From the NCBI GenBank assembly GCA_051861545.1, contig JBIMKP010000022.1, positions 2,025 through 66,024 on the forward strand: DNA of 64,000 nt, read 5' to 3'. Below are positions 6,948 through 59,143 of this stretch, piece by piece. The position numbers and the translations under genes are program-made. Within the stretch, counting starts at the first letter, position 1, and each line of letters starts with the position of its first letter. The notes under the pieces are model-generated. The model was not told the origin of the DNA. It was given only the letters and a program-made list of their open reading frames with translations, and made no database searches. Source of the DNA: Bacteroidia bacterium. Its GTDB lineage: Bacteria > Bacteroidota > Bacteroidia > UKL13-3.

Positions 6948-7926
6948 TTAACAAAGCTCCAAGAAATATAATAGCAAACAGAATTAAGTTTACTAAAATT
7001 ATTCCAATCGCTTTTGAAATTGATTTGCCTGTACTTTCCTGAAACATATTAAAATGTGCTCTCAAAAAGTATAAGATTGTACAAATTCCTATTGCTCCAA
7101 TTAAATATGATCTTATTAAAAAATAGTTGTTTGTATCATGTCCTCCGCTAAACCAACCAACTATATTACCCAAAATTGTGTTTAAACATAAACTCAACAA
7201 TAAAAAGGAGAAAAAATGCAATGTAAATATGGCATGGTCGAAGTAAATATAGTTTTGCTTTCTATGAAATACTTGTATCACTAATGCAAATAATGGCAAG
7301 TATATAAAAAGTGATTTAGGAAAGTTTTTTCCAAAAGCACTTAAAAACATATCCCAAATTGTTTCAGGTGTATAATTTGCTAAATCAATTCCTTTTTTAT
7401 GTCCGATATATTCCAACCAAATCATTTCATCTTCTGTTCCTTCAAGAACTGTTCTTGCTGAATCCAATTGTTTATAATCCTTGTATTGGCTCGATAATAT
7501 CAATCCATAATCACTTATATACGACATTTCATTATTGGTAGCCTTTTTTATTGAATCTACCTCAGCCAAATAGTTTTTTCTATGACTTTTTTTGAGCTCA
7601 GGTTCTGTGTTTTCAGGTAATAAATGTGGCAATAAAAAGGTGAAAAAACTCACAAATATGTACAATCTAACAGGTGGTAAATAGGAGGTTCTTTTACCTT
7701 TTAAATATTCTATTGTTAAGTAAGCTGGTTTGAAAAACAAGTATTGTATTGTTTTCCAAAATTTTCCTTCATAGTGAGTTAAATCTTCTGCGAAATGGGC
7801 AAATAAGCCCAAAAAACTCATTCGGGTTTCTATATTTTCTTGCCCACAATGCCCACAAAATCTATCTTCAACTATGTTTCCACAGTTTAAACAAGTTTTA
7901 TCTTCTCTGGTTTGATGATGGCCCAT
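6925..7926 (-). CDS. DUF3667-like membrane protein with N-terminal zinc ribbon
   Basis: CLNCGNIVEDRFCGHCGQEN double CxxC motif followed by multiple TM helices. Confidence 0.6.
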   Translation of the reverse strand: MGHHQTREDKTCLNCGNIVEDRFCGHCGQENIETRMSFLGLFAHFAEDLTHYEGKFWKTIQYLFFKPAYLTIEYLKGKRTSYLPPVRLYIFVSFFTFLLPHLLPENTEPELKKSHRKNYLAEVDSIKKATNNEMSYISDYGLILSSQYKDYKQLDSARTVLEGTEDEMIWLEYIGHKKGIDLANYTPETIWDMFLSAFGKNFPKSLFIYLPLFALVIQVFHRKQNYIYFDHAIFTLHFFSFLLLSLCLNTILGNIVGWFSGGHDTNNYFLIRSYLIGAIGICTILYFLRAHFNMFQESTGKSISKAIGIILVNLILFAIIFLGALLITLMNLH

Positions 7927-16951: not shown

Positions 16952-17833
16952 TTATTTAGATTCAAAATGTTCAACGCAGATTTTAGCAATTTCTGCTATG
17001 ATTTTCTCATTGGTCTCCTCATTTTCTTTGCTATCTTTTACAAATACTGAAATAATCAAAATTTGACCATTTTTAAATGGAATTATTCCTACATCATTTA
17101 CCGCTTCAGTAATTCCTTTAGAATTTTGATCTGAAGTTCCTGTTTTATGTGCAACAATATATTTAGGTAGGAGGTAAGGAAGACGTTTGGCTCCCGTGTA
17201 ATTAATCGCCATGAATTCCAATAAAAGCCTTCTACTTTCTTCCGACAATATTTTATTGTTTTGTAAGGATTCAAGTATTGCTGTTATTGTTTTTAAATCT
17301 ACCCAGTTATCATAAATTCTTTCTCTTTTCTCATGTTTTTGTTGTTCTGTCCATTTCATGGAAATGCCTTTGAATCCTTCTTGATGAAAGAATTTTTCTA
17401 CAACAAGAGGAGAGCCAATCAGTTTAAATAAAAGATCACAGCTGTTGTTATCACTGTATGAAATAACATTGTTTAATAAATCAAAAATATTTACTTTACC
17501 TTTTTTTGATGGGAATTTTTCTATAAGAGGACCAAAGCTAGAAAAAATATCTTTTTCATCAAATTGAATTTCTTGTATTAATCTCAGATTACCTTCCTCA
17601 ACCTGTTTTAAGACATAAATTGCTAATGGTAATTTGTAAACGCTCATCATTGGAAATTTGGTTTCATTGAGTCGGTATAAACCATTTTTCTCCCCAATAA
17701 TTTTTACACCAACACCAATTTGAGCTTTGTAGTTTTTGCAGTACTCATCGAGTTTGATTTCCAATTTTGATTGCGAACATGAAATCAAAGATGAAGAACA
17801 AAACAAGATAAATAAGTAAATAATTTTATTCAT
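16952..17833 (-). CDS. class A beta-lactamase family serine hydrolase
   Basis: 293 aa; signal/lipobox; SVYK (SxxK), SDN and KTG motifs are all present. Confidence 0.8.
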   Translation of the reverse strand: MNKIIYLFILFCSSSLISCSQSKLEIKLDEYCKNYKAQIGVGVKIIGEKNGLYRLNETKFPMMSVYKLPLAIYVLKQVEEGNLRLIQEIQFDEKDIFSSFGPLIEKFPSKKGKVNIFDLLNNVISYSDNNSCDLLFKLIGSPLVVEKFFHQEGFKGISMKWTEQQKHEKRERIYDNWVDLKTITAILESLQNNKILSEESRRLLLEFMAINYTGAKRLPYLLPKYIVAHKTGTSDQNSKGITEAVNDVGIIPFKNGQILIISVFVKDSKENEETNEKIIAEIAKICVEHFESK

Positions 17834-18578
17834 GATTCAAGATAAACTTTAATCCTAATTCTCCATCAAATTCTATTTCTGAAAACAAATTCATTCCTAT
17901 TTTCTGTAACACTTTTGCTGATGAAGTATTTTCCTTTTTGCAGCGAGCAACAATTTGTTTGATGTCTAATATCTCAAAACCATATTTTAAAGTTGCTATT
18001 GCTGATTCTGTTGCATATCCCATATTCCAATATTCTTCAAGAAATCTGAATCCAATATCAGTTTCATTTAAATCTTCCTGAAATCTTAATCCACACCAGC
18101 CTAAAAATTGAGAATCTGTCTTTCTGTGAACAATCCATCTACATAGGGCCCGCTGAAAAAGACAGAAACAGGTCAGATTTTAGACGCTGCCAAATTAGAT
18201 GTATATATAATACTTCAATTTGGCAGCAACGACAAAGATGGCCTTGTTTCTGTCTTTAAGTTAATTGAAAACCAATTGTACTTAATGCAAGAATTTTTAA
18301 GTAATTGCTCTTAAAACCTTGCATTTAAATTATTAAATATAGTCTAATTGATTGATATTAAGTTCTAATAACGATTTTCAGCAGGCCTTACCTAATCCAT
18401 ATTTTGAATATTGCTCATAGTTTAAAATGAGTTCTTCTGCTTCCTGAATATTATTAAATGGCTTGTCACCTGTAAATTTTAATACATTCGGATTGGAATT
18501 TAATCGAAACAAATCTGGCGCATCATCTAAGGTCCATTCTCTTAAAATCAATCTTTCTGTTTCAGTAATAATTTTCAT
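17826..18578 (-). pseudogene. GNAT (RimJ/RimL-type) acetyltransferase split by MITE insertion
   Basis: N-terminal part (18578 to 18389: MKIITETERLILREWTL...YGLG) and C-terminal part (18145 to 17826: RWIVHRKTDSQFLGWCGLRF...GYATESA...) are separated by the 243-bp element. Removing the element plus one TSD copy restores YGLGRWIV in frame. Confidence 0.75.
18146..18388 (-). mobile_element. MITE-like palindromic element, copy 1 (reverse orientation)
   Basis: About 90% identical to the copies at 32423 and 50559; TIRs GGGCCCGCTGAAAA / TTTTCAGCAGGCC; flanked by TACATA / TACCTA (TSD TAGGTA with one mismatch). Confidence 0.8.
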
Positions 18579-24304: not shown

Positions 24305-24327
24305 AAGGGGCAATTGCCCCTTTTTTA
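24305..24327 (-). terminator. intrinsic terminator of rnpB
   Basis: GGGGCAATTGCCCC perfect hairpin flanked by A7/T6 runs. Confidence 0.8.
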
Positions 24328-24328
24328 C

Positions 24329-24701
24329 AAAATCATAAGCCGGGTTCTGTTATTAAACATTGCTGTTTAATTGGCTATCATTTCTCTTGGCCTGACGTTG
24401 CCATCAGGCTCTAGCAGTCTACCCACCTCAATATAATTTCCGAAGAAATTAAGCAAACGAGCAGTTTGACGATTGAGGCCTATTTGACCTTGCAACCCAT
24501 AAGGTTTACATTGCCTTCTTTATCACTAAAGAAGCGGTGGGCTCTTACTCCACCATTTCACCCTTACCAATTTAAATAAATAAACTGGCGGTATACTTTC
24601 TGTTGCACTTTCTGTATTTCTTGCGAAATCCTGTCTGTTAGGCAGTATGGTGCTCTGTGTTGCCCGGACTTTCCTCTGATTACTCAGCGATAACCGATTT
24701 T
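24329..24701 (-). ncRNA. rnpB: RNase P RNA, bacterial type A
   Basis: Minus-strand transcript contains GAGGAAAGUCCGGGC (P4), ACAGAAAGUGCAACAGAAA, GGUAAGGGUGAAAUGGUGGAGUAAGAGCCCACC (P10-P12) and the 3' ACAGAACCCGGCUUAU (P4 3' strand), all universal RNase P RNA signatures. Confidence 0.85.
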
Positions 24702-24716
24702 GCTTGACAAAGGTAA

Positions 24717-26934: not shown

Positions 26935-27231
26935 ATGGCTCATTTTATGGTTGAAATGTTCTTACCCGAAATTCTGGATATGGAGTTTATGCAGATGATT
27001 CCATCACATAGAGCCTATGTAGATCAATTGATTTCTGAAGGTAAAATTCTTACTTATACTGTAAACGAAGAAAGAACCAAAGGCTGGATTATTTTTGATG
27101 CAGAAGAAGCCGAGGAGGTTTTAGATATTGTTCAACAATTTCCTATCAACAGATTTTTAACCTTTGAAATACATTCATTAATGATTCATGATGGAGAAGC
27201 TTTTAGATTCCCCAAACTTCATTTGAATTAA
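26935..27231 (+). CDS. hypothetical small protein (possible dimeric alpha/beta-barrel, muconolactone-isomerase-like)
   Basis: MAHFMVEMFLPEIL... resembles the MLFHVKM N-terminus of muconolactone isomerase family; weak. Confidence 0.35.
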   Translation: MAHFMVEMFLPEILDMEFMQMIPSHRAYVDQLISEGKILTYTVNEERTKGWIIFDAEEAEEVLDIVQQFPINRFLTFEIHSLMIHDGEAFRFPKLHLN

Positions 27232-27650
27232 TCTAAAAATGTAATTTTAAAATCAATCGGACAAACCATACTTAACATGGCACTAACTCCACAATATTTG
27301 TCCTTGGATAATTCGACTGCTTTCAACATTTTTTCTTCATCCTCTTTTTTTACTTTGATTTTATATTCCAAGTAAATTCGGGTATAAATTTTCGGATGTT
27401 CATCTCGCAAATCAGCTTTAACATTCAAAGCAAAATCACTAAAATCTACCCTCATTTTCTGCAATAAACTCACAATATCCATTCCTGTGCAAGCGCCTAA
27501 TGAGCTTAATATAAGTGCTTTTGGTCTTGGGCCTTTATCCTTTCCTCCACCAGATTCTGAGGAATCAATTGTTAAATGATGTCCATCTATAATTGAATCA
27601 AATTCAAAGCCTTCTTTCCAGCTGGTTTCTACTTCATGTAAAGTTGACAT
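27228..27650 (-). CDS. OsmC/Ohr family peroxiredoxin-like protein
   Basis: LGACTGMDIV and KYCGVSAM two-Cys motifs. The start was chosen at the internal Met (MSTLHEV); the ORF-track N-terminal extension overlaps the upstream gene. Confidence 0.75.
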   Translation of the reverse strand: MSTLHEVETSWKEGFEFDSIIDGHHLTIDSSESGGGKDKGPRPKALILSSLGACTGMDIVSLLQKMRVDFSDFALNVKADLRDEHPKIYTRIYLEYKIKVKKEDEEKMLKAVELSKDKYCGVSAMLSMVCPIDFKITFLD

Positions 27651-27651
27651 A

Positions 27652-27864
27652 TTATATACTTGTTTCTTTTTTTTCTTTGGCTTTAAATCCATCACCCGCA
27701 ATTGCTCCCATAAACAATCCATAAGCAGAACTTCTATAAGGATTTGAAGTAATTGCACATGTACCATCAGCACAACCAACAAAATACCAATAAGCTAGTC
27801 CAGCAAATCCTCCAATTACTGCTCCAATAATTGTTGTTTTATGTTTAAATATAAATTCCTTCAT
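27652..27864 (-). CDS. small membrane protein with CADGTC motif
   Basis: 70 aa; two hydrophobic segments with glycine-zipper character. Confidence 0.5.
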   Translation of the reverse strand: MKEFIFKHKTTIIGAVIGGFAGLAYWYFVGCADGTCAITSNPYRSSAYGLFMGAIAGDGFKAKEKKETSI

Positions 27865-27897
27865 CTAATAAAATATTATGTTTTTTCTTGATTCTTT

Positions 27898-29280
27898 TTA
27901 TTTGGGGATTACCAACAAATAACCTGCTTCTTTAATTTTATTTATTCCTCCATGCACATTTTTAACATGATTGAATCCATGTTTTTTCATCATTGAACTT
28001 GCCATCATACTTCTGTAACCACCAGCACAATGGATCAAATATTTCTTATTAGGATTTAAATTTTCTAATGCTTTTTCAAGTTTTGAAAGTGGAATTAACT
28101 CAGCACCTTCAACAAAACCATTACTCCATTCTGATGGATTTCTAACATCAATTACAGTTGGATTTTCTATTCCTAATTCTTCTGCGAAAACTTCAGGTTC
28201 AATGCTTTCAACTACTTCAATATTTTTGCCAGCTTTAATCCATGAATCAAAACCACCATCTAAATAACCAAAAACATGTTCATAACCAACTCTTGCCAAT
28301 CTTAGAATTGCTTCTTTTTCTTTTCCTTCATCTGCAATTACAATAATTGGTTTTCCATGGTCGATTAACGAACCTACCCACACTGCATATTGTCCTTCTA
28401 ATCCAATATTTATTGAGCCAGGAATAAAACCTTTTTCAAAAATTTCTGCGGTTCTTGCATCTAAAATTATGGTGCCTTTTTCAATTTCTTCAACTACTTG
28501 TTCAACTCTTAATGCAACAGCATTTCTGCTCATTACTTCATCAATATTTCTATAGCCTTTTTTGTTAATTGCTGCATCAATAAAAAAGTATTTTGGTGGC
28601 TCATCTAATCCGCTTGCTACTTTTTCAACAAATTCTTCCTTGGTTTCACAAGCCAATGCATAATTTGATGTTCTTTGAATACCAATGGTGGTTGATGTTT
28701 CTTTCCCAATGTTTTTACCGCATGCCGAACCAGCACCATGTCCAGGATAAACAATAACATCATCATGTAAAACCATCAATTTGTCATAAATTGAATCATA
28801 TAATAAACCTGCTAAATCTTCTTTTGATAAATCTGATTTTACTGCTAAATCAGGTCTTCCAACATCACCTGCAAACAATGTATCTCCGGTAAATACAGCA
28901 TGATTATTTCCATTTTCATCAATCAGTAATAAACATGATGATTCTAATGTATGTCCAGGTGTATGTAATAATTTTAGTTGGATATCACCAAGTTTAAATA
29001 CTTCACCATCTTGTGCTACATACATGTTAAATTCTGAAACAGCGCTTGGTCCATATACAATTGTTGCTCCAGTTTTAGCAGCTAAATCAATATGACCCGA
29101 TACAAAATCTGCATGAAAATGAGTTTCAAAAACATATTTTATTTTGGCATTTCTTTGCTCAGCTATTTCAATATATGGACTAGTTTCTCTTAAAGGATCT
29201 ATAATTGCAGCTTCACCATTACTTTCTATATAATAAGCTGCTTCGGCTAGACAATTGGTGTATAATTGTTGAATGTACAT
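27898..29280 (-). CDS. MBL-fold metallo-hydrolase fused to rhodanese domains (persulfide dioxygenase-like)
   Basis: 460 aa; HFHADFVSGH metal-binding motif; C-terminal rhodanese Cys loop (HCAGGYRS). Confidence 0.8.
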   Translation of the reverse strand: MYIQQLYTNCLAEAAYYIESNGEAAIIDPLRETSPYIEIAEQRNAKIKYVFETHFHADFVSGHIDLAAKTGATIVYGPSAVSEFNMYVAQDGEVFKLGDIQLKLLHTPGHTLESSCLLLIDENGNNHAVFTGDTLFAGDVGRPDLAVKSDLSKEDLAGLLYDSIYDKLMVLHDDVIVYPGHGAGSACGKNIGKETSTTIGIQRTSNYALACETKEEFVEKVASGLDEPPKYFFIDAAINKKGYRNIDEVMSRNAVALRVEQVVEEIEKGTIILDARTAEIFEKGFIPGSINIGLEGQYAVWVGSLIDHGKPIIVIADEGKEKEAILRLARVGYEHVFGYLDGGFDSWIKAGKNIEVVESIEPEVFAEELGIENPTVIDVRNPSEWSNGFVEGAELIPLSKLEKALENLNPNKKYLIHCAGGYRSMMASSMMKKHGFNHVKNVHGGINKIKEAGYLLVIPK

Positions 29281-29393
29281 AAGATTTAAATTTTATTCAA
29301 AGCTTTAAAATACATGTAAAATTAGGTTGATAGGCATCAAGTAATTTTATGATTTTAATTTTGATTGAATGTAATACTGCTTTCAAAACCAAA

Positions 29394-29711
29394 TCAATAA
29401 TTACAATTACACTTATCCATTAAATTTATAACAGCACATAGTTCCTTCTCCTTTAAACTATATATAACTTTAGTTCCTTCTTTTTTGGCCAAAAGAATTC
29501 CTTTTAGTTTCATGTTTATTAAATGGTGTGAAATTAATGATTGTTCGCAATTCGTTTCTAAACATATTTCACTAACTGTACTTGGACCATTATCATTTAA
29601 AAAACTAATAATTGCCAATCTGGTAGGATGAGCAATTGTTTTAAGAATAAATGCTGCTTTTTCTAGTTTTTTTGTTTCAATCATAATTCTTATGTACAAA
29701 TATATGAACAT
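29394..29711 (-). CDS. ArsR/SmtB family transcriptional regulator
   Basis: HPTRLAIISFL...STVSEICLETNCEQSLISHHL winged-HTH; several Cys residues. Confidence 0.75.
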   Translation of the reverse strand: MFIYLYIRIMIETKKLEKAAFILKTIAHPTRLAIISFLNDNGPSTVSEICLETNCEQSLISHHLINMKLKGILLAKKEGTKVIYSLKEKELCAVINLMDKCNCNY

Positions 29712-29769
29712 ATATTCATATAAGCAAGAGGCTATAATATCTCATCCCAAGTATTGGAAACATTGAAGT

Positions 29770-30927
29770 ATGAGGCTAAATTCCGTTATTTGTAAGCATA
29801 TGAACATTGGATTTGACGCAAAAAGAGCTTTTCATAATAAAACGGGTTTGGGTAACTATAGCCGTAGTTTTATTAAAGCTTTAATTGATGAAAAGTCTGA
29901 TAATCAATTATATTTATTTACACCTGAGATTGGTGACTTAGGTCAGGAGTTTTTAAATAAACATGATGTAAAAATCGTTATACCCACAAAAAAAATCCAT
30001 CAGTTTTTGCCCACTTATTGGAGAAGTCATGGTTTATTAGACGAAATTAAAAGGGATAAAATTCAGATTTTTCATGGCTTAAGTAATGAATTACCTGTTG
30101 GAATTGAAAGGTTAGCTATTAAAAAAGTGGTTACAATTCATGACTTAATTTTTTTAAGGTTTCCTGAATTATATCCTCCCATTGATAGGAGAATTTATGA
30201 AAGAAAGTTTAAATCGGCAGTAGTAAGAGCTGATAAAATTTTTGCATGTAGTCAGCAAACCTCTACGGATATTCAAGAGTTTTATGGTATAGATGAATCT
30301 AAAATTGAAGTAGTTTATCAGGATTGTGGAATTCATTTCAGGAAGAAACATTCTGATGATGAAAAAAACTCTTTTCTACTTAAACATCAATTACCACAAA
30401 AGTTTATTCTTAGTGTTGGTACCCTAGAAAAACGTAAAAATCAATTGTTACTATTGAAAGCCTTTCATGAGGCAAACTTGCAAGATAACAGTTTAATATT
30501 TTTAGGAAAAAAGGCCGATTTATATTCAGATATGTTGCAATATGTAAGGTTAAATGGCCTTCAAAACAAGGTATTTTTTTTAGATAAAATAGAAGAGGAG
30601 GAGCTACCAATTTTATATCAATCGGCTTTTGCGTTTGCTTATATTAGTAAATTTGAAGGGTTTGGAATTCCAATACTCGAGGCTTTAAGAAGTGGAGTTC
30701 CAGTGCTTAGTTCTAAACAATCAAGTTTACCAGAAGTTGCGGGAAATGCGGCTTTGTATTCTGATTTTAATGATGCCGAAACACTTATTTCCAATTTAAA
30801 GGAAATTTCAGGAAATCCTGAATTACGCTTTAAATTAATAAATTTAGGATATGCTCAAGCTTCTAAATTTGATTCAGATAAAATTGCTAAACAGGTGATT
30901 TCTAATTACGAAGGACTCTTATTATAA
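29770..30927 (+). CDS. glycosyltransferase family 4 (GT-B)
   Basis: EGFGIPILEALRSGVPVL EX7E-type motif; the real start is possibly Met at 29800. Confidence 0.8.
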   Translation: MRLNSVICKHMNIGFDAKRAFHNKTGLGNYSRSFIKALIDEKSDNQLYLFTPEIGDLGQEFLNKHDVKIVIPTKKIHQFLPTYWRSHGLLDEIKRDKIQIFHGLSNELPVGIERLAIKKVVTIHDLIFLRFPELYPPIDRRIYERKFKSAVVRADKIFACSQQTSTDIQEFYGIDESKIEVVYQDCGIHFRKKHSDDEKNSFLLKHQLPQKFILSVGTLEKRKNQLLLLKAFHEANLQDNSLIFLGKKADLYSDMLQYVRLNGLQNKVFFLDKIEEEELPILYQSAFAFAYISKFEGFGIPILEALRSGVPVLSSKQSSLPEVAGNAALYSDFNDAETLISNLKEISGNPELRFKLINLGYAQASKFDSDKIAKQVISNYEGLLL

Positions 30928-30991
30928 AGATTATCCAAACTTCAATCATAATAAAACAAAGAGAGTCTATGGCTTTTTATATTTTTGTGAT

Positions 30992-32413
30992 GTGAAAATT
31001 GATTTAAAAGATAGAATTTTTGATGATTTAAGAATTGTAGCAGAAAAAACTGGTATAGAAGCCTATGTAGTAGGTGGATTTGTTCGCGATATTTTTTTAG
31101 AAAGAACTTCAAAAGATATAGATATAGTAGTTGTTGGAAACGGGATAGATTTTGCAAAGGAATTTTCGGAACATATTGGAAGTTCAAGCGATTTTGCTGT
31201 TTTCAAAAACTTTGGAACTGCAATGGTAAGGTGCAATGATTGGGAAGTTGAATTTGTTGGTGCCCGCAAAGAAAGTTATTCAAGAAACAGCAGAAAACCA
31301 GAGGTGAGTCCTGGTACATTAAAAGAAGACCAATCAAGAAGAGATTTTACAATAAATGCATTAGGTATCAGTCTAAATAAGAATGATTTTGGCACTTTAT
31401 TAGACCCATTTCATGGATTAGATGATTTAAAAAGAAAGATTCTAAGAACACCTTTAGAACCAGGAATTACTTTCGATGATGATCCATTAAGAATGATGCG
31501 AGCAGTTCGTTTCGCCTCTCAATTAAACTTTGATATTTTACCTGAAACTTTTGATTCAATTAAAAAGCATAAAGACAGAATCAAAATTGTTTCTTTTGAA
31601 AGAATTATTGAAGAATTAAATAAAATTATTCTTTCTAAAAAACCTTCAATAGGATTGAATTTATTGTTTGAATGTGGCTTATTAGAGATAATTTTTCCAG
31701 AACTAAAAGCATTACATGGGATTGATTATGTGAATGGTAAAGGTCATAAAGACAATTTTTATCATAGCTTACAAGTGCTCGACCAAGGTTCAGAAGAAAC
31801 AAATGATTTGTGGTTAAGGTGGGCTTTATTACTACATGATATTGGAAAGCCTGTAACTAAAAAATTCATTCCTCAAGAAGGCTGGACATTCCATGGTCAT
31901 GAAGACAAGGGAAGCAGAATGATTTCAAAAATATTCAGAAAGTTAAAATTACCTCTGAATGAAAAAATGAAATATGTAGAAAAATTGGTTGCATTACACC
32001 ACCGTCCTAAAGCATTGGCTGAAGATGGAGTAACTGATGCTGCTATAAGAAGATTAATAGTTGATGCCGGCGAAGATTTAAACGACTTGTTCTTATTGTG
32101 CAGAGCTGATATGACTACTAAAAGTCAGGATAAATTAAACAAGTACAGAGGTAATTTATTAAAAGTTCAGGAACTGGTTGTTGAAGTTGAAGAAAGAGAT
32201 GCGTTACGAAATTGGCAACCACCAGTAAGTGGTGAAGATATTATGGCATATTTTGGCTTGGAACCTTCTAAAATAATCGGAATTATAAAGGAAGAAATTC
32301 GGGAATCAATTTTAGAAGGTAAGATTAAAAATGAGCGCGAAGCTGCAATACAGTTGATGAAAGATCTTGGCGAAATTCATCAGCTAAAGCCAATTGGAAT
32401 AAGTTTGAATTAA
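30992..32413 (+). CDS. cca: CCA tRNA nucleotidyltransferase / HD-domain protein
   Basis: GGFVRD nucleotidyltransferase motif; RDFTINAL; HD motif LLHDIGKP. Confidence 0.8.
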   Translation: MKIDLKDRIFDDLRIVAEKTGIEAYVVGGFVRDIFLERTSKDIDIVVVGNGIDFAKEFSEHIGSSSDFAVFKNFGTAMVRCNDWEVEFVGARKESYSRNSRKPEVSPGTLKEDQSRRDFTINALGISLNKNDFGTLLDPFHGLDDLKRKILRTPLEPGITFDDDPLRMMRAVRFASQLNFDILPETFDSIKKHKDRIKIVSFERIIEELNKIILSKKPSIGLNLLFECGLLEIIFPELKALHGIDYVNGKGHKDNFYHSLQVLDQGSEETNDLWLRWALLLHDIGKPVTKKFIPQEGWTFHGHEDKGSRMISKIFRKLKLPLNEKMKYVEKLVALHHRPKALAEDGVTDAAIRRLIVDAGEDLNDLFLLCRADMTTKSQDKLNKYRGNLLKVQELVVEVEERDALRNWQPPVSGEDIMAYFGLEPSKIIGIIKEEIRESILEGKIKNEREAAIQLMKDLGEIHQLKPIGISLN

Positions 32414-32422
32414 CATTATTTA

Positions 32423-32665
32423 GGGCCTGCTGAAAATCTTTATTAGAACTTATTATCAATCAATTAGATTGTGTTTAAATAATTTAAATGCAAGGTTTTA
32501 AGAACAATGGCTAAAAATCCTTGCATCAAGTAAAATTAGTTTTCAAATTAAATAAAGACAGAAACAAGGCCATCTTTGTCGTTGCTGCCAAATTGAAGTA
32601 TTATATATACATCTAATTTGGCAGCGCCTAAAATCTGACCTGTTTCTGTCTTTTTCAGCAGGCCC
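32423..32665 (+). mobile_element. MITE-like palindromic element, copy 2
   Basis: TIRs GGGCCTGCTGAAAA...TTTTCAGCAGGCCC; perfect 6-bp TSD TATTTA on both sides (32417..32422 and 32666..32671). Confidence 0.85.
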
Positions 32666-32748
32666 TATTTATGATGGAATTGTAAATTTTGATTTAATCA
32701 TTGATTTTCACTTGGAAAAATCGCATATTAGCAGTAAATACTGATTAA

Positions 32749-33858
32749 ATGCGCGGTTTAAAACCACTTATATTATTCATTTTCTGTCATTTAAGTTTGG
32801 CGAGTTTTGCTCAGCCATCAGTATTAGGTACAAACATTTTTTCAGGAACTTTTTTGAATTATAATTTAACTCAATTAGGTAAAGTCAGGCAATACAGAGC
32901 TCAATCATCTGTTTCTCATGCTTCCGGAGTTGGACAATGGCTATTTTGTAGAGGAACAGTTGGTTCTCCCGATTATAGCATTAAATGGAATCCATATTCA
33001 AGTGGTGAGATTATTCCTGGATTTAATACAATAATAAATCCTTCTGTTAGTGCCGGTTCTGCCAGGTACAATACTGCCGGTGCAGGTGGAGGTGCAAATG
33101 GGCAAGTCCCAGCTACAGTTTCAGGTTGGTACTATACTTTTAATATTGGTGATAATCAATTTGTTGATAATTACATGGCAGTTTGGGAAACTACTTTTAA
33201 TCCAGTAAATATTATAAGTTCAACTCAGTCACCAGGAGTAGTTTGCTCAAACGGAGATTCTATTACTATTAAGGTTAAAACCTCATCAAGCCCAAATATT
33301 GCTGAAAAAATTTACCTTAGGTATACAAGAGATTCTTCTTTTAGTCCTTCATTTTTAGTTCAACTTAGTTTTTCCGCAGATTCCGGCTCAGCAAAAATTC
33401 CTGTTTTAAATTCAGGAGATACGATTCGTTATTATTTATTTAATTCTTTACTAAATACAAGTCAATTAGCTCCGGGTGGCACTGTTAATGAAACCAATTG
33501 TGATATGAGTACCTTGAGTATGAACAATAATTCAAACAATAATTTTAGGTTTATCATTAGTTCGGCTCCAAGTCCAACTTCTTCCTTTAGCGCTGGGGCT
33601 GCTTGTGTTGGCGTTGCTACAAGTTTCACCAATAGTTCAAGTATTAGTTCAGGTTCAATTGCAACATCAAATTGGAATTTTGGTGATACAGGAACTGGCT
33701 CTGGAAGTGGGATTTCAAATACCAATCATACCTATTCAACTATTGGGAATTATAGAGTTTCTCTTACTGTAATAAGTAATAATGGTTGTCAAAAAAGTTC
33801 AGATCAAAATATACAAGTTAATCCTAAACCAACTACAAATGGTTTATTACCACATTAA
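32749..33858 (+). CDS. secreted PKD-domain protein
   Basis: Signal peptide; WNFGDTGTGSG...HTYSTIGNYRVSLTVISNNGC is a PKD signature. Confidence 0.6.
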   Translation: MRGLKPLILFIFCHLSLASFAQPSVLGTNIFSGTFLNYNLTQLGKVRQYRAQSSVSHASGVGQWLFCRGTVGSPDYSIKWNPYSSGEIIPGFNTIINPSVSAGSARYNTAGAGGGANGQVPATVSGWYYTFNIGDNQFVDNYMAVWETTFNPVNIISSTQSPGVVCSNGDSITIKVKTSSSPNIAEKIYLRYTRDSSFSPSFLVQLSFSADSGSAKIPVLNSGDTIRYYLFNSLLNTSQLAPGGTVNETNCDMSTLSMNNNSNNNFRFIISSAPSPTSSFSAGAACVGVATSFTNSSSISSGSIATSNWNFGDTGTGSGSGISNTNHTYSTIGNYRVSLTVISNNGCQKSSDQNIQVNPKPTTNGLLPH

Positions 33859-33888
33859 ATTAAACAACATCAAACAACATAAAAACAT

Positions 33889-34656
33889 ATGAAAAACAAC
33901 AACACAAACAAATTATTATTAGTGGTTCTAATGGTAATTGGATTCGCATTTGTATCTCAAGCCCAACAAAAAACTTGGTCGGGAAATCAAACACGTTACC
34001 GTATCGACTCAACCACAAATGCTACATCTGTAATTAACTGGTCAATTAAAGCCGGTGGTGCTAATGGAGCAGGAGCAGTTGGCGGTGGTAGAGGAGCAAA
34101 TTATGCTGTAAATTGGACTTATTCTGGTACTACAAAACTAACAGATTCAGTTTTAGTAAGTGAAACAGTGAGTTCATGTATTGGAGAAAATCAGGCTTAT
34201 GGAATTACTATTTATCCAAATCCAACTCCTATTTACAAAAATCCTTCAAATACCACTGTTACAAGTGTTACTGCTAGTTGTCCTTTATCTAGTCCTGGTG
34301 ATATTACTATTGAAATGAGCAATTTTGTAACAGCTAGTTTAGGCGATTTAGGCACTTATACAATTACTTATGAAATTAAAGATGGTGGTACAACTGTGAG
34401 TGGAAGTTTAGGTTCTGTAAATACAACTACTGCAACAGCTACCATTACTGGAACTACTTTATCAGGATTTTTAGCTAATACTGGCGCTACTCCTAAAAAC
34501 TACACTTTAGTTATTACAGGAATATCAGCTACAAATCCATTAACTCCAGGAGCATTAAATGCAGGTGCGGTTGGAACAACAGCTATTAATGCAATATTGC
34601 CTTTAACAATTGTTGTTTCTGCTAAACCAAGCACTTCAGCAATTACACCTTACTAG
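33889..34656 (+). CDS. hypothetical secreted protein
   Basis: Signal peptide MKNNNTNKLLLVVLMVIGFAFVSQAQ; Thr/Gly-rich. Confidence 0.5.
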   Translation: MKNNNTNKLLLVVLMVIGFAFVSQAQQKTWSGNQTRYRIDSTTNATSVINWSIKAGGANGAGAVGGGRGANYAVNWTYSGTTKLTDSVLVSETVSSCIGENQAYGITIYPNPTPIYKNPSNTTVTSVTASCPLSSPGDITIEMSNFVTASLGDLGTYTITYEIKDGGTTVSGSLGSVNTTTATATITGTTLSGFLANTGATPKNYTLVITGISATNPLTPGALNAGAVGTTAINAILPLTIVVSAKPSTSAITPY

Positions 34657-34667
34657 AATTTATTCTA

Positions 34668-35711
34668 TTGTTTTTTAAGCTCATCAGATATTATATCTGT
34701 TTGGGTTGTTTGTTATTGTATGCTCCTGAAGCTTTTTCTCAATATGCTGATACAGCATGTGTTGGAGAAATTGCTTCAGGTTATAGAGTAATACCAACCC
34801 CTGGATCAAACTATCAATGGTTTGTGAAAGGAGGAAGTATTGTGTCTGGACAAGGAACAAATGATATCAAAATAAACTGGGGAATAATACCTGGTGTATA
34901 TGATTTACAAGTAGTAGAAACAACATCTGGAACTTGCATAGGAGATACCGTTTCAGCCCAAATTCTTTTGATTCAAAATCCTGTAGTTACAGTGGTATCT
35001 GATGATTCTGTTTGTGTTGGTGACCCTGTAATTTTAAATGCAGCGGGTGCTAGTAAGTATTTTTGGAATGAAATTGAAGGACCACAAACCTTGATAATTT
35101 TTCCTCAACAAGATACTGTTATAAGTTTAAGGGGAATGACTGCATCTTGCAATAGCACTACAATTAGTAAAAAGATTATAGCAGTTCCTAAGCCAGTTGC
35201 TAGTTTTGTGTTTAATCCTACAGAATGGATTATTAGTGATGTAATTAATTTTGCATTTAATGGAAGTAATGCAACCAAATTAATTTGGTATTTTGATAAT
35301 GATTTGGTAGATGATGGTTATAAAACCAGTTTGAGCAAAACACTTAAAGATTCAGGTGAATTAACAGTAACATTATGGGCAGTTGGCGCATTTGGTTGTG
35401 CTGATTCAATGCAATATACTGGTAGGATTTATTCGGGTTGGACTGTTTTTGCACCCACAGCTTTTACCCCAAATAGTGATGGTATTAATGATGTATTTGG
35501 GCTTGAATATTTTGGCTATAAAAAGGGAGAAGTTACTATTTTTAATAGGTATGGAATGCCAATTTTTAAATCAAATGACCTGAATTTTGGATGGGATGGG
35601 TATTTTGAAGGTAATGCCCAACCTAGTGATATTTATACATTTGAATTGATAGTTTATGATAGATTAGATAGGCCGCGATTAATTAGTGGTAAGTTTAATT
35701 TAATTCGATAA
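34668..35711 (+). CDS. secreted protein with T9SS type-B (gliding-motility-associated, CHU_C-like) C-terminal domain
   Basis: C-terminus TAFTPNSDGINDVFGLEYFGY...IFNRYGMPIF matches the type-B sorting domain consensus. Confidence 0.65.
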   Translation: MFFKLIRYYICLGCLLLYAPEAFSQYADTACVGEIASGYRVIPTPGSNYQWFVKGGSIVSGQGTNDIKINWGIIPGVYDLQVVETTSGTCIGDTVSAQILLIQNPVVTVVSDDSVCVGDPVILNAAGASKYFWNEIEGPQTLIIFPQQDTVISLRGMTASCNSTTISKKIIAVPKPVASFVFNPTEWIISDVINFAFNGSNATKLIWYFDNDLVDDGYKTSLSKTLKDSGELTVTLWAVGAFGCADSMQYTGRIYSGWTVFAPTAFTPNSDGINDVFGLEYFGYKKGEVTIFNRYGMPIFKSNDLNFGWDGYFEGNAQPSDIYTFELIVYDRLDRPRLISGKFNLIR

Positions 35712-50107: not shown

Positions 50108-50542
50108 TTACGTTTTATTTAATGTCTGTAATTCACTTATTAATTCTTCTAATCGGGTCTTTGTGCTTCGCTTACTATAGTTGTAAATTGGTCTAAATAT
50201 TAGGAACATCAAAAACAAATAGAATAAAGTGCAAACTGCAATTGGAATGAACATTTTATTTAATATTGAAAAATACATCCCCAATAAAGGTAGGATAGTA
50301 AATGTAGCAGTTATTCGCATATCTAAGATTAAATACCCGTTTATTTCAGTTCCTTTATCCGTCGCTTTCCAAGTTAAATTAACCATAGGTCTGAATGCAT
50401 TTCTTATTGGAAATTGACCAAGTGTAAATTTTGTATTATTGTTTATAATTGAACCATAAAATGCATTGTTAGACGACATTTGAAAAGAGTTGTATTGCTG
50501 AATATTAGTTTCTATGATACTTTGTGCTTGCTTTACGGTCAA
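50108..50542 (-). CDS. hypothetical membrane protein
   Basis: 144 aa; two C-terminal TM helices. Confidence 0.45.
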   Translation of the reverse strand: MTVKQAQSIIETNIQQYNSFQMSSNNAFYGSIINNNTKFTLGQFPIRNAFRPMVNLTWKATDKGTEINGYLILDMRITATFTILPLLGMYFSILNKMFIPIAVCTLFYLFLMFLIFRPIYNYSKRSTKTRLEELISELQTLNKT

Positions 50543-50558
50543 ATCACTAACTAATGTA

Positions 50559-50802
50559 GGGCTTGCTGAAAATCTAAATTAGCACTAATTATCAATCAAT
50601 TGAATTAGTTTTTTATAAATCACGGGAAAGGTTTTAAGAACAATTGCTTAAAAATCCTTGCATCAAGTAAAATTAGATTTCAAATTACCTAAAGACAGAA
50701 ACAAGGCCATCTTTGTCGTTGCTGCCAAACTGAGGTATTATTTATACATCTATTTTGGCAGCGTCTAAAATCTGACCTGTTTCTGTCTTTTTCAGCGGGC
50801 CC
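50559..50802 (+). mobile_element. MITE-like palindromic element, copy 3
   Basis: TIRs GGGCTTGCTGAAAA...TTTTCAGCGGGCCC; 7-bp TSD TAATGTA (50552..50558 and 50803..50809); lies 16 bp upstream of the start codon of the 50108..50542 gene. Confidence 0.85.
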
Positions 50803-51027
50803 TAATGTAAATTTATCGGTCTTAAATGGAAACATATGTCTGTTATCTTGGGCTTAAATCTAAGGTTTTTTAGCTAGACGAAGTGGTTGACTTTGATGCA
50901 CCTACTTTCAATTTGGCATATAATCCGATAATTTGCCAAACTGCGGTTAAAGTTTTGGGCTCAATTTCGGTTAAGATTATTTTTTATTTTCCTGTTCTTC
51001 AAAATTGTTAAAGTATGTAAAAGGCAT

Positions 51028-51690: not shown

Positions 51691-51728
51691 TATTTAAAAT
51701 GGCTTATATCGTTTTATATATTTGTTTT

Positions 51729-51826
51729 TGGCCGGCGTTTATAATCAAATGTATATATGGGAAACGAATTAATCAACCAATAAAATCGCATTAGAAGGAG
51801 AGGTATTGCATTTAAATTGTTATATT
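51729..51826 (-). promoter_or_regulatory. conserved upstream module A (promoter plus conserved ~50-bp upstream sequence)
   Basis: One of four similar ~100-bp modules; on the minus strand it reads TTGATTAATTCGTTTCCCATATATACATTTGA, i.e. -33 TTG / -7 TAnnTTTG. Confidence 0.5.
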
Positions 51827-52331: not shown

Positions 52332-52378
52332 TTTTTTTGTCGTTTTTATAATACCCTATAACTTTTTGCACATTTGCT

Positions 52379-52480
52379 TTGGACCTGCGTTTAAACTCAA
52401 ATGTAAATAGGGGAAAAGAATTAATCAACCTCTAAAATCTGTAAAACGGAGAGGTAATGCCAGTAAATTGTAATTGTGTG
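52379..52480 (-). promoter_or_regulatory. conserved upstream module B
   Basis: GCGTTTAAACTCAAATGTAAATAGGGGAAAAGAATTAATCAAC...; most similar to modules C and D. Confidence 0.5.
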
Positions 52481-54130: not shown

Positions 54131-54175
54131 GATTGATTGTTAAAACTTGTCGATAGGGTTTTGATTATTTGTTAT

Positions 54176-54284
54176 TGGCCAGCGATTATACTCAAATGTA
54201 AATAGGGGAAAGGAATTAATCAACTAGTAAATCCCGTTAAACAGAGACGAATTGCACACCTATTGTAATTGTACTCTGTACTCT
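54176..54284 (-). promoter_or_regulatory. conserved upstream module C
   Basis: GCGATTATACTCAAATGTAAATAGGGGAAAGGAATTAATCAAC...GAGACGAATTGCACACCTATTGTAATTGT. Confidence 0.5.
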
Positions 54285-57005: not shown

Positions 57006-57067
57006 ATTTTAGTTTGTTCATGGTGTTTCGCTATAATAGCATTCAATGTTTTTAGCGCTTCTGCGAT

Positions 57068-57166
57068 GGTTGTGCGTTTATGCTCAAATGTAAATAGGGG
57101 AAAGGAATTTACCAACCACTAAAATCCCTTTAAATGGAGACGAATTGCATGCCTATTGTGAATGTG
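57068..57166 (-). promoter_or_regulatory. conserved upstream module D
   Basis: GCGTTTATGCTCAAATGTAAATAGGGGAAAGGAATTTACCAAC...GAGACGAATTGCATGCCTATTGTGAATGT; about 80% identical to module C. Confidence 0.5.
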
Positions 57167-57809
57167 CTGTAAGCGGTAGTTGTGTTGGTCATCGTCATCA
57201 ATTTCTCTGACTTTAATATTGTCCAAATAGACCTTTTTATTTACGTTATTTTTATACTTTTATAAGGTCTTGTTTTGATATAAAATAAACTTCGGTGTCT
57301 TAAAATATAGAAGTACTTTATTTTAAATTGTCGTCTTTTTATTTATAGTTTATTATTATTTCTAGTCAATTTGTCTTTTTAGATTTTTTTTAATCTGCTC
57401 CGGTTGGGCAATTGATGTATTATTTTATCTTGTTCTAAACATACCAAGTCCATATAAGAGTCGATAGGTTTCTATGTCAAAAGTGTATTTATTTGAAATA
57501 ACATTTCTAAAGACTTCGAAAGAAGGTTCCTGATTGCTGCGACACTTGTCACAACAGTCCACTGAAAAATTTGTCTCGTCCTGAAAAATGTTTACACTTA
57601 TTGATAAATAATCCTGTTACATGTTTACACAATTTTTTAAATCCTGAATACCGTTTACATTTGTTTTACTGGATGAAGCGGAAGCGAGCTCTGCTGAGGA
57701 GCAACTCGCCAGGAATAATCCAGTCAGATGAGCATATAAATCCGTTATTAGGTTTACACTTGATAATGGATTTACTTTTTATATGCACTTCTGCCAAGCC
57801 TAATAAAAC

Positions 57810-58656
57810 CTATGCCATAGCTACCTCCTCCTTTTTTTGTTTATTGATTTGATAATAATTTTTCCATCGTTTGTTGAGTTTTCCGGTTCCTTGATGTGCT
57901 TCAACAGGTTTAAGATTATCAATGCTCCCATGCGGTCTTAAATGATTGTAAGTGCTACAAGCTACAGCTATTGCTAGTTGTGCTATTTTAAAATCGACAA
58001 ATACCTCTTCTAAAAGTTCAGATTTTAAAATACCGTTTACTCTTTCTGCAAGCGGGTTTTCCAAGGGGTCTCCATTTTCTGTCATTGAAATTTTAATGGT
58101 ATTATTGTGTAATAACTTTACATATTCATCGCAGCAGTATTGCACTCCTCTATCACTGTGATGAATTAAATTTTCACAATCTGTATTACCGGTCAAAGCC
58201 ATTTTTAATGCTTTTAATGGACCTTTTGCCGATAAATCTTCACTCAAATAAAAGCCAACAATTTTATGGCTGTATGCATCTGTTATAAGTGATAAATAAG
58301 CAAAGTCATCCGATAAATGAATATAGGTTATATCACTTACCCAAAGCTGATTAGGGGCAATGGGTATAAAGCCTTTAATGATGTTTGGAAAGTGTGGTTA
58401 TACATCCTTTGCGCCTTCGTTTTGTAATCAACATGCCTCGTTCTGCCAATAGATTAAACATTGCATCTCTTCCTATTTGAAAATTATGGTCTTCTAAAAA
58501 TCCTTGCATTTCATGCAATAGTTTTCGGGTGCCTAATCGCTTCTGATGCTTTCGATAACGCAACACTTCATCAATGACAATATCAGCTTCGTATGCTTTT
58601 TGCTGAATAAATTTTAGGCCTTGATAGTAGCTTTGCCTACTATAACCAAGCAGCAA
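57810..58656 (-). pseudogene. IS3-family transposase OrfB (rve integrase core), frameshifted
   Basis: DDE region ...WVSDITYIHL..., HSDRGVQYC, ERVNGILKSE. The reading frame breaks at about 58375 between ...TLSKHH* and KGFIPIAPNQLW. Confidence 0.7.
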
Positions 58657-58700
58657 ACAAAGGTCGTTTATGCAACGAGGCTTCCTTTGTCCAACTGTTT

Positions 58701-59033
58701 CTACCGCTTGGTGCCAGACTTTTTTCTGATGTCAATTTTAAGTTGATCTTCTGCAATATCAATCATTGCGTTGAGCAGCTCGTTGTGAAGTTTTGCTTTA
58801 CGCAATTCTTCCTGCAAAGTTTTTACATCAGTTGGTAAGGGCTCTGCAGAAATTGGTTGGATTTGTGTTTTTGTTTTTGGCACTGATTTACCTTGAAATT
58901 TTCTTACCCACGAATGTATTAATCTGAAATCAATCTCATGCTTTTTTCCTAACTGGCGGTAACTTAATTCGCCCATTAAATACTCTGCAATGATTTTCTC
59001 TTGTTCTTCTTTTGTTTTCGTTCTTCTTTTCAT
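58701..59033 (-). CDS. IS3-family transposase OrfA (HTH/leucine-zipper)
   Basis: 110 aa; EEQEKIIAEYLMGELSYRQLGKKHEI helix-turn-helix. Confidence 0.8.
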   Translation of the reverse strand: MKRRTKTKEEQEKIIAEYLMGELSYRQLGKKHEIDFRLIHSWVRKFQGKSVPKTKTQIQPISAEPLPTDVKTLQEELRKAKLHNELLNAMIDIAEDQLKIDIRKKSGTKR

Positions 59034-59143
59034 TTTTGTTTACACTTTTTTGTGTAAACCTATTTTAGGACGAGACAGTCTACTTTAATTATAGACCATA
59101 ATTCTTTAATTAAAATCTTTTAGATGATGATTTTTGTGAATTG

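Follow-up and report, generated by a model that had tools for sequence, protein, structure and literature searches.

The window analysed here, a stretch of 64,000 nucleotides from a Bacteroidia bacterium (contig JBIMKP010000022.1), carries three copies of a repeat that is very probably a bacterial MITE, a non-coding element of ~243 bp with a terminal inverted repeat of 14 bp on either side, and which would represent a previously undescribed family of a known kind. All three insertions are missing from close relatives and two of them interrupt genes, and the element has recently been active in a clade of low-GC freshwater Bacteroidia. The repeats combine the features by which MITEs are recognised, being non-coding and shorter than ~500 bp, with terminal inverted repeats, a target duplication and dispersed copies that vary between strains. 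A search for the terminal repeat in the searchable literature returned one unrelated methods article and no other occurrence, and no DNA match to the element was found in the plasmid database.

Structure of the three copies

Copy 1 occupies positions 18146..18388 (243 bp) on the minus strand, reversed with respect to copies 2 and 3, and lies within a GNAT acetyltransferase gene. Copy 2 (32423..32665, 243 bp, plus strand) is intergenic, and copy 3 (50559..50802, 244 bp, plus strand) lies within a 158-aa gene on the minus strand. An earlier note on this DNA, made from the letters alone, had described three copies of ~244 bp, ~90% identical and devoid of coding capacity, and our analysis agrees on each point. 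All three copies were confirmed at these coordinates; aligned in the same orientation they are 86-92% identical pairwise, with a mean column identity of 92%; and the longest stop-free stretch within any of them is 36-55 codons, a 22-aa ORF being present in the left half of the element. Identity is unevenly spread along the element, at 77-86% over the left 130 bp and 94-98% over the right 113 bp.

The terminal inverted repeats are 14 bp long (GGGCCYGCTGAAAA ... TTTTCAGCRGGCCC) and are found at both ends of every copy. With up to two mismatches allowed, the window has seven occurrences of GGGCCYGCTGAAAA where 0.49 would be expected; the ends of the three copies account for six of them, and seven occurrences were reached in 0 of 100 shuffles. 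The ends had previously been written as GGGCC(Y), which holds apart from a minor correction at two left ends: copy 1 has AGGCC and copy 3 GGGCTT.

Two further features of the window may be recorded here. A bacterial class A RNase P RNA gene (24324-24702, minus strand; Rfam, 264.8 bits, full length) is its only Rfam match. A conserved block of ~115 nt occurs four times (51712-51825, 52364-52477, 54159-54272 and 57051-57164), each time immediately upstream of a gene on the minus strand; one of the four genes encodes an amine oxidase, and the function of the other three is unknown. The blocks are 62-75% identical to one another and contain TTGATTAATTC...TTTCCCCTATTTACATTTGAG. TAnnTTTG is the Bacteroidetes -7 promoter motif and is fitted by TACATTTG in the block. 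The block looks like a common promoter and operator of a small regulon.

Empty sites and target duplication

Each copy had been reported to be bounded by a TA-rich direct repeat (TATTTA, TAATGTA and TAGGTA/TATGTA), and this was borne out at all three. Copy 2 has TATTTA on its left (32417..32422) and right (32666..32671), and copy 3 has TAATGTA at 50552..50558 and again at 50803..50809. The duplication of copy 1 reads TACATA on the plus strand (TATGTA on the element's strand) at 18140..18145 and TACCTA (TAGGTA on the element's strand) at 18389..18394, its halves thus differing by one mismatch. The YGLGRW motif across the insertion point, which is invariant in orthologues of the interrupted protein, shows TAGGTA to have been the original target.

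In silico removal of copy 1 together with one duplication joins the two pieces of the GNAT gene (C-terminal fragment 17826..18139, N-terminal fragment 18395..18578, both on the minus strand) into a continuous minus-strand ORF of 167 aa, which matches Pfam Acetyltransf_3 over profile positions 1-138 of 138 (E = 4.7e-32). In the window, the ORF of the N-terminal fragment runs into copy 1 and ends at a TGA in the terminal repeat. Intact 167-aa orthologues exist in the same gene context, one of them (P0001) being 90% identical, and no record of the truncated product was found among other assemblies. Three contigs (L155, L156 and L157) lack copy 1; their GNAT gene is intact, and the beta-lactamase-family gene downstream of it is the one also found there in the window. 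In the BLAST alignment of L155, window position 18391 is joined directly to 18140.

The other two insertions gave the same picture. Copy 2 lies between a tRNA nucleotidyltransferase-like gene (Pfam PolyA_pol and HD) and a PKD-domain gene, starting 9 bp past the stop codon of the former and ending 83 bp ahead of the latter. The syntenic contig of a Lake Mendota MAG (L002) is without it, being 97% identical to the window over 27229-32420 (5.2 kb) and 84% over 32678-35044; window positions 32420 and 32678 correspond to 2376 and 2366 of L002, which leaves ~9 bp between the two blocks, and the site is therefore empty in this relative. Copy 3 follows codon 11 of a minus-strand gene of unknown function, whose codons 12-158 lie at 50108..50551 and whose first codons (MFPFKTDKF...) lie at 50810..50835, with codons 10-11 in the duplication at 50803-50809. 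Removal of the copy in silico restores the 158-aa ORF, of which an intact orthologue (P0121) is 94% identical over its full length. At this site L159, L160 and L161 read ...GATAAATT TACATTA GTTAGTG..., with the 7-mer once, whereas the window has it on both sides. The reverse case was also found: the window holds a single TAATCTA at 27229..27235, an unoccupied target site, at which the sister-MAG contigs L002 and L016 carry a 332-bp variant of the element with TAATCTA on both sides. Presence or absence thus differs at four sites between close relatives.

The same preferences hold for the ~30 further copies, which lie at unrelated positions (see below). The left flank ends in TA in every one of ~30 copies and the right flank starts with TA in all but one, and perfect duplications measure 6 bp in ten cases and 7 bp in four (TAATCTA, TAAGCTA, TAAATTA and TAATGTA). 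The flanks of the remaining copies differ by at least one base or are wholly unlike, which could be due to decay or to recombination between copies. At five loci (L027, L010, L007, L021 and L026) the flanking 6-mers are wholly mismatched, yet TA adjoins the element on both sides; such flanks may have arisen when copies inserted at separate sites recombined, and not through point decay. The target is TA-N2-3-TA, the 6-7 bp of which are duplicated on insertion: the empty sites carry the sequence once, and therefore the whole 6-7 bp is duplicated, not TA alone. In the window this motif recurs roughly every 69 bp and is therefore not limiting. About 8 of 27 copies adjoin the stop codon of a gene, in either orientation, in keeping with a target that starts TAA or TAG and with selection against intragenic insertions. 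Copies within ORFs are few (3 of 27), and since two of those three are in the window, we argue that the window insertions are young.

Taken together, empty sites in relatives for all three copies, the reverse case and the further copies uphold the earlier reading of a non-autonomous transposon with a TA-rich 6-7 bp duplication. That note had named, as the outcome that would count against it, a dispersed repeat without empty sites and always next to the same gene, which is not what is seen. An immobile dispersed repeat, be it of the REP/BIME-like palindromic kind or a family of small-RNA genes at fixed positions, is accordingly very improbable: the element is palindromic, most of its MAG copies are intergenic and no transposase lies nearby, but this reading is refuted by the empty sites, with clean presence or absence at four sites, and conflicts with terminal inverted repeats that carry copy-specific 6-7 bp duplications and with two insertions inside otherwise conserved genes. 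REP and IS200-IS605-type palindromic elements have neither terminal inverted repeats nor target duplication, and as both are present here this class is ruled out. An assembly or chimera artefact is hardly credible at all; repeats do break short-read assemblies, but the element recurs in independent NCBI MAG, ENA, JGI and Logan assemblies with different flanks for each copy, which refutes the idea.

MITEs derived from IS630 or Tc1-mariner elements duplicate the TA dinucleotide only, and such a derivation is ruled out by empty sites showing that the whole 6-7 bp is duplicated. The classical bacterial MITEs, Correia in Neisseria and RUP in Streptococcus pneumoniae, likewise duplicate only TA. The window MITE is like them in being short, non-coding and multi-copy, with terminal inverted repeats and long hairpins, and in lying often beside genes and sometimes within them; it differs in its 6-7 bp duplication, in the lack of any sequence similarity and in its host phylum. 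MITEs have been described in the same phylum in Porphyromonas gingivalis, for example a minisatellite-containing MITE (PMC4596501). Unlike the window MITE, the P. gingivalis element carries a minisatellite.

Distribution, variants and hairpins

When the right-end 21-mer was searched against one genome per species, 32 loci were found, of which 31 are real copies on contigs of 30-37% GC from Bacteroidia MAGs; the other (L023, Caldicoprobacterales) matches over 22 nt by chance and falls within a large coding ORF. The hosts number at least five freshwater Bacteroidia MAGs of low GC, among them pond H1_MAG_00027, LE_173636, LE_229046 and Mendota bin131. Real copies at L010, L012, L029 and L032 lie in the CALRIT02 'Vulcanococcus limneticus LL' bin, that of a picocyanobacterium, on contigs of 70-297 kb; these probably belong to Bacteroidia, come from a long-read assembly and were binned wrongly. 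Given their GC content of 31-33%, we do not take them as cross-phylum spread. A high genomic copy number had been predicted from the three copies in the window. This is partly borne out by at least 16 copies in one incomplete MAG and by a Logan contig (L158), 100% identical to the window, which stops inside copy 3 in the manner of multi-copy repeats.

The element also occurs in several variant forms. In the 332-bp variant an 88-bp hairpin block is inserted at element position 192; this form occupies at least five unrelated sites and thus still transposes. The block was found solely inside MITE copies and always at position 192 (L014 4813-4900, and in L002, L006, L012, L016, L028 and L030). Orthologous copies in two different MAGs (L014 and L015) have copy-specific substitutions in common and differ by exactly the 88-bp block, pointing therefore to precise internal gain or loss, or to conversion between copies. 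Shorter variants lack positions 45-102 or 115-206, and old, decayed copies are found as well. Positions 1-44 and 207-243 are kept in all variants, from which we infer that ~40 bp at each end would be sufficient in cis. Solitary ends and partial, diverged copies stand beside intact copies at L031 (4906-4930 and 6112-6190) and L004 (3434-3581), which suggests that older copies have repeatedly served as insertion sites or had new copies land next to them.

The interior had been described as extensively self-complementary, and folding recovered the hairpins that were named. A long imperfect hairpin covers 32556..32651 (plus strand) in the right half of copy 2, with outer arms AAAGACAGAAACAAGG / CCTGTTTCTGTCTTT and inner arms GCTGCCAAATT / AATTTGGCAGC. 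Folded as RNA, the element reaches -84 and -90 kcal/mol on its two strands (z = -10 and -11 against shuffles), and the right half folded as DNA gives z = -7.6. Dead copies decaying neutrally would not show such a difference in identity between the halves; conservation of the right one could stem from what transposition requires in cis in the lineages that keep producing copies, from correction between hairpin arms, or from a co-opted function. The hairpins are most simply explained as a by-product of the origin of the element, by inverted duplication of the region next to its right end, and they may also act in cis in transposition; they can be accounted for without any RNA function.

That the MITE has also been co-opted for a function of the host or of the element itself, its conserved 113-bp right half working as an RNA structure, as a terminator of transcription or as a site for protein binding, seems to us improbable. 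The 94-98% identity of that half against 77-86% for the left, and the very stable folding, are in line with such a role, but Rfam 15 gave no match to the elements at the gathering threshold (best 19.6 bits against a threshold of 195), a simple terminator scan found no terminator-like site in the element, and a simple promoter scan found promoter-like sites no commoner than in shuffles. Compensatory changes do occur in three stem pairs, including in an old, decayed copy (L025 1086-1310) whose outer stem has been kept via paired changes while the inner stem was lost; however, these three are among 52 pairs predicted by RNAalifold from 22 copies, and the changes come from very few sequences. The ~8 of 27 copies beside stop codons might likewise speak for such a role, but their position is accounted for by the target and by selection as set out above, copies adjoin genes in both orientations, and of the three copies in the window two do no more than disrupt genes. 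With no Rfam match and 3 of 52 pairs compensatory, the earlier suggestion of a small-RNA or protein-binding unit thus found no support.

Candidate transposase and significance

A search for an autonomous partner with matching terminal repeats, as the earlier note had advised, yielded none in the window, the MAG loci, the IMG/VR matches listed or a filtered metagenome scan. No ORF flanked by GGGCCYGCTGAAAA-like ends (up to three mismatches) was present in the window or the 32 MAG loci. When the 55 ORFs of 110 aa or more in the window were all scanned against Pfam, the only transposase remnant to emerge was a decayed IS3-family element of 1,506 bp (57572-59077, minus strand; terminal repeats TGTCTCGTCCTGAAAAATGTTTACAC / TGTCTCGTCCTAAAATAGGTTTACAC) with orfA (HTH_Tnp_1) at 58701-59033, an rve_3 fragment at 57810-58247, and stops and frameshifts between them. 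Members of the IS3 family have TG...CA ends, a 3-5 bp duplication, and HTH_Tnp_1 and rve domains. As a partner this element was rejected because its TGTCTCGTCCTGAAAAA ends (TGTCTCG...) differ from those of the MITE. IS-like inverted repeats, sought in all relevant loci, amounted to chance arms of 16-21 nt and the same decayed IS3 element.

Terminal-repeat scans of IMG/VR gave no cognate autonomous element among the matches listed, nearly all of which were chance matches in coding DNA, where GGTTCTGCTGAAAA encodes G-S-A-E-K/N. One of these (L171) lies in a giant-virus RNA polymerase gene; at another locus (L074), in GC-rich DNA, a truncated IS1595-like ORF and a chance 14-mer are 540 bp apart. 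No partner was found when a metagenome scan looked for the right-end 20-mer with non-MITE sequence behind it, the nine matches being chance (46-57% GC, no similarity to the MITE, no TA flanks). The IMG/VR scan did disclose a separate MITE of 266 bp with a TAAATA duplication, at 7272-7537 of a 99-kb contig of 40% GC in the viral-contig collection (L035, IMGVR_UViG_3300009826_001457). Its ends, GGTTCTGCTGAAAA / GGGCCTGCTGAAAA with AAAAAG at the right end, and its type of duplication are essentially those of the window MITE, whereas its interior is unrelated. This MITE probably forms a family of its own that a related transposase serves, and the same ends on an unrelated MITE point to a transposase recognising them in more than one host.

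Among known families, the ends of the MITE most invite comparison with the IS1/IS1595 family, whose ends read GGnnnTG, and with its IS1016 group, whose ends read GGGgcTG. The ends of ISKpn3 are CCTGATTACC and its duplication measures 8 bp; lengths of 712-720 bp, GGGGCTGTCCTAGATAA ends and 8-bp AT-rich duplications are found in ISEc75, in ISAba36 and in many relatives from IMG/VR. Duplications of 7 bp characterise a second IS1016-like subgroup: an IS on a plasmid of Hymenobacter sp. NBH84 (WP_185281262.1; 746 bp, ends GGGGCTTAGGAAGCAAAA) duplicates TAAGTAA, and the IMG/VR elements L303, L301 and L300 duplicate TATTTTA, ACTGTAA and TTATAAA. The MITE and the IS1016-like elements have in common a GGGyCT start with ...GAA further in, the ends of both opening with the pattern GGGnCT(G/T); AT-rich duplications that often start and/or end in TA (TATTTTA, TAAGTAA, TAATTTTA); very small size; and occurrence in Bacteroidota. 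They differ in that the IS1016-like ends begin GGG(G/T)CT (GGGGCTG, GGGGCTT, GGGTCTT) and those of the MITE GGGCCTG, in that bases 8-14 of the MITE repeat are unlike those of every IS1016-like element examined, and in that the IS1016-like duplications are 7 bp (four cases) or 8 bp whereas those of the MITE are 6 bp (ten perfect) or 7 bp (four perfect). The IS1016-like elements are 712-760 bp long and encode a transposase of ~220 aa (Pfam PF12762), whereas the MITE has 243 bp and no ORF. Two particular candidates were set aside. A very abundant 738-bp relative (P0190-type IS), which occurs in ENA samples with accession numbers in the range of the empty-site contig L155, is ruled out by its GGGTCTTAGGAAGTTAA ends and 8-bp duplication, and the IS1595 copies of Bacteroides plasmids have no recognisable ends.

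An IS1016-like transposase of the IS1595 family is thus a candidate mobiliser of the MITE, judged by resemblance of ends and duplications; because the inner part of the repeat differs and the commonest duplication is 6 bp, we rate it only just short of an even chance. A mobiliser from outside the IS1595 family, either of ISNCY/ISDol1 type or from a family not yet described, is a serious possibility to which we would give rather less than even weight. The 6-bp duplication that is commonest in the MITE did not occur among the IS1016-like elements examined, resemblance to their ends stops after the first 6-7 bases of the repeat, and no cognate IS1595-type element appeared among 120 protein matches and 80 IMG/VR loci (ends examined in 46, none of them matching); against this stand the GGGyCT start and the AT-rich, in several cases TA-bounded, duplications of the IS1016-like elements. 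ISNCY/ISDol1-type elements have 6-7 bp duplications according to the ISfinder family table. In the searchable literature ISDol1 came up in two papers, neither of them relevant. It is unlikely, in our view, that the MITE reveals a new transposase lineage, as an IS1595 subgroup or in another family, with its own choice of TA-N2-3-TA and a 6-7 nt stagger and, jointly, a right-arm hairpin that functions as a transposition enhancer, terminator or small RNA rather than being a mere relic.

Whichever family supplies it, the mobiliser of this MITE would be a DDE transposase encoded elsewhere in the genome that binds the GGGCCYGCTGAAAA ends. It would cut the target with a stagger of 6-7 nt, and repair of the gaps would yield the duplication.

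To conclude, the element is a clean example of a recently active MITE in abundant, uncultured freshwater Bacteroidia, and its insertions have inactivated a GNAT acetyltransferase gene and the gene of a small protein of unknown function in one strain. Its presence breaks short-read assemblies of the host genomes. With the ends and target motif of the element defined, its transposase is easy to seek in long-read genomes; our understanding of how bacterial transposons work is otherwise unchanged. As the MITE varies between co-occurring strains, it could be used to tell strains apart in time series from lakes.
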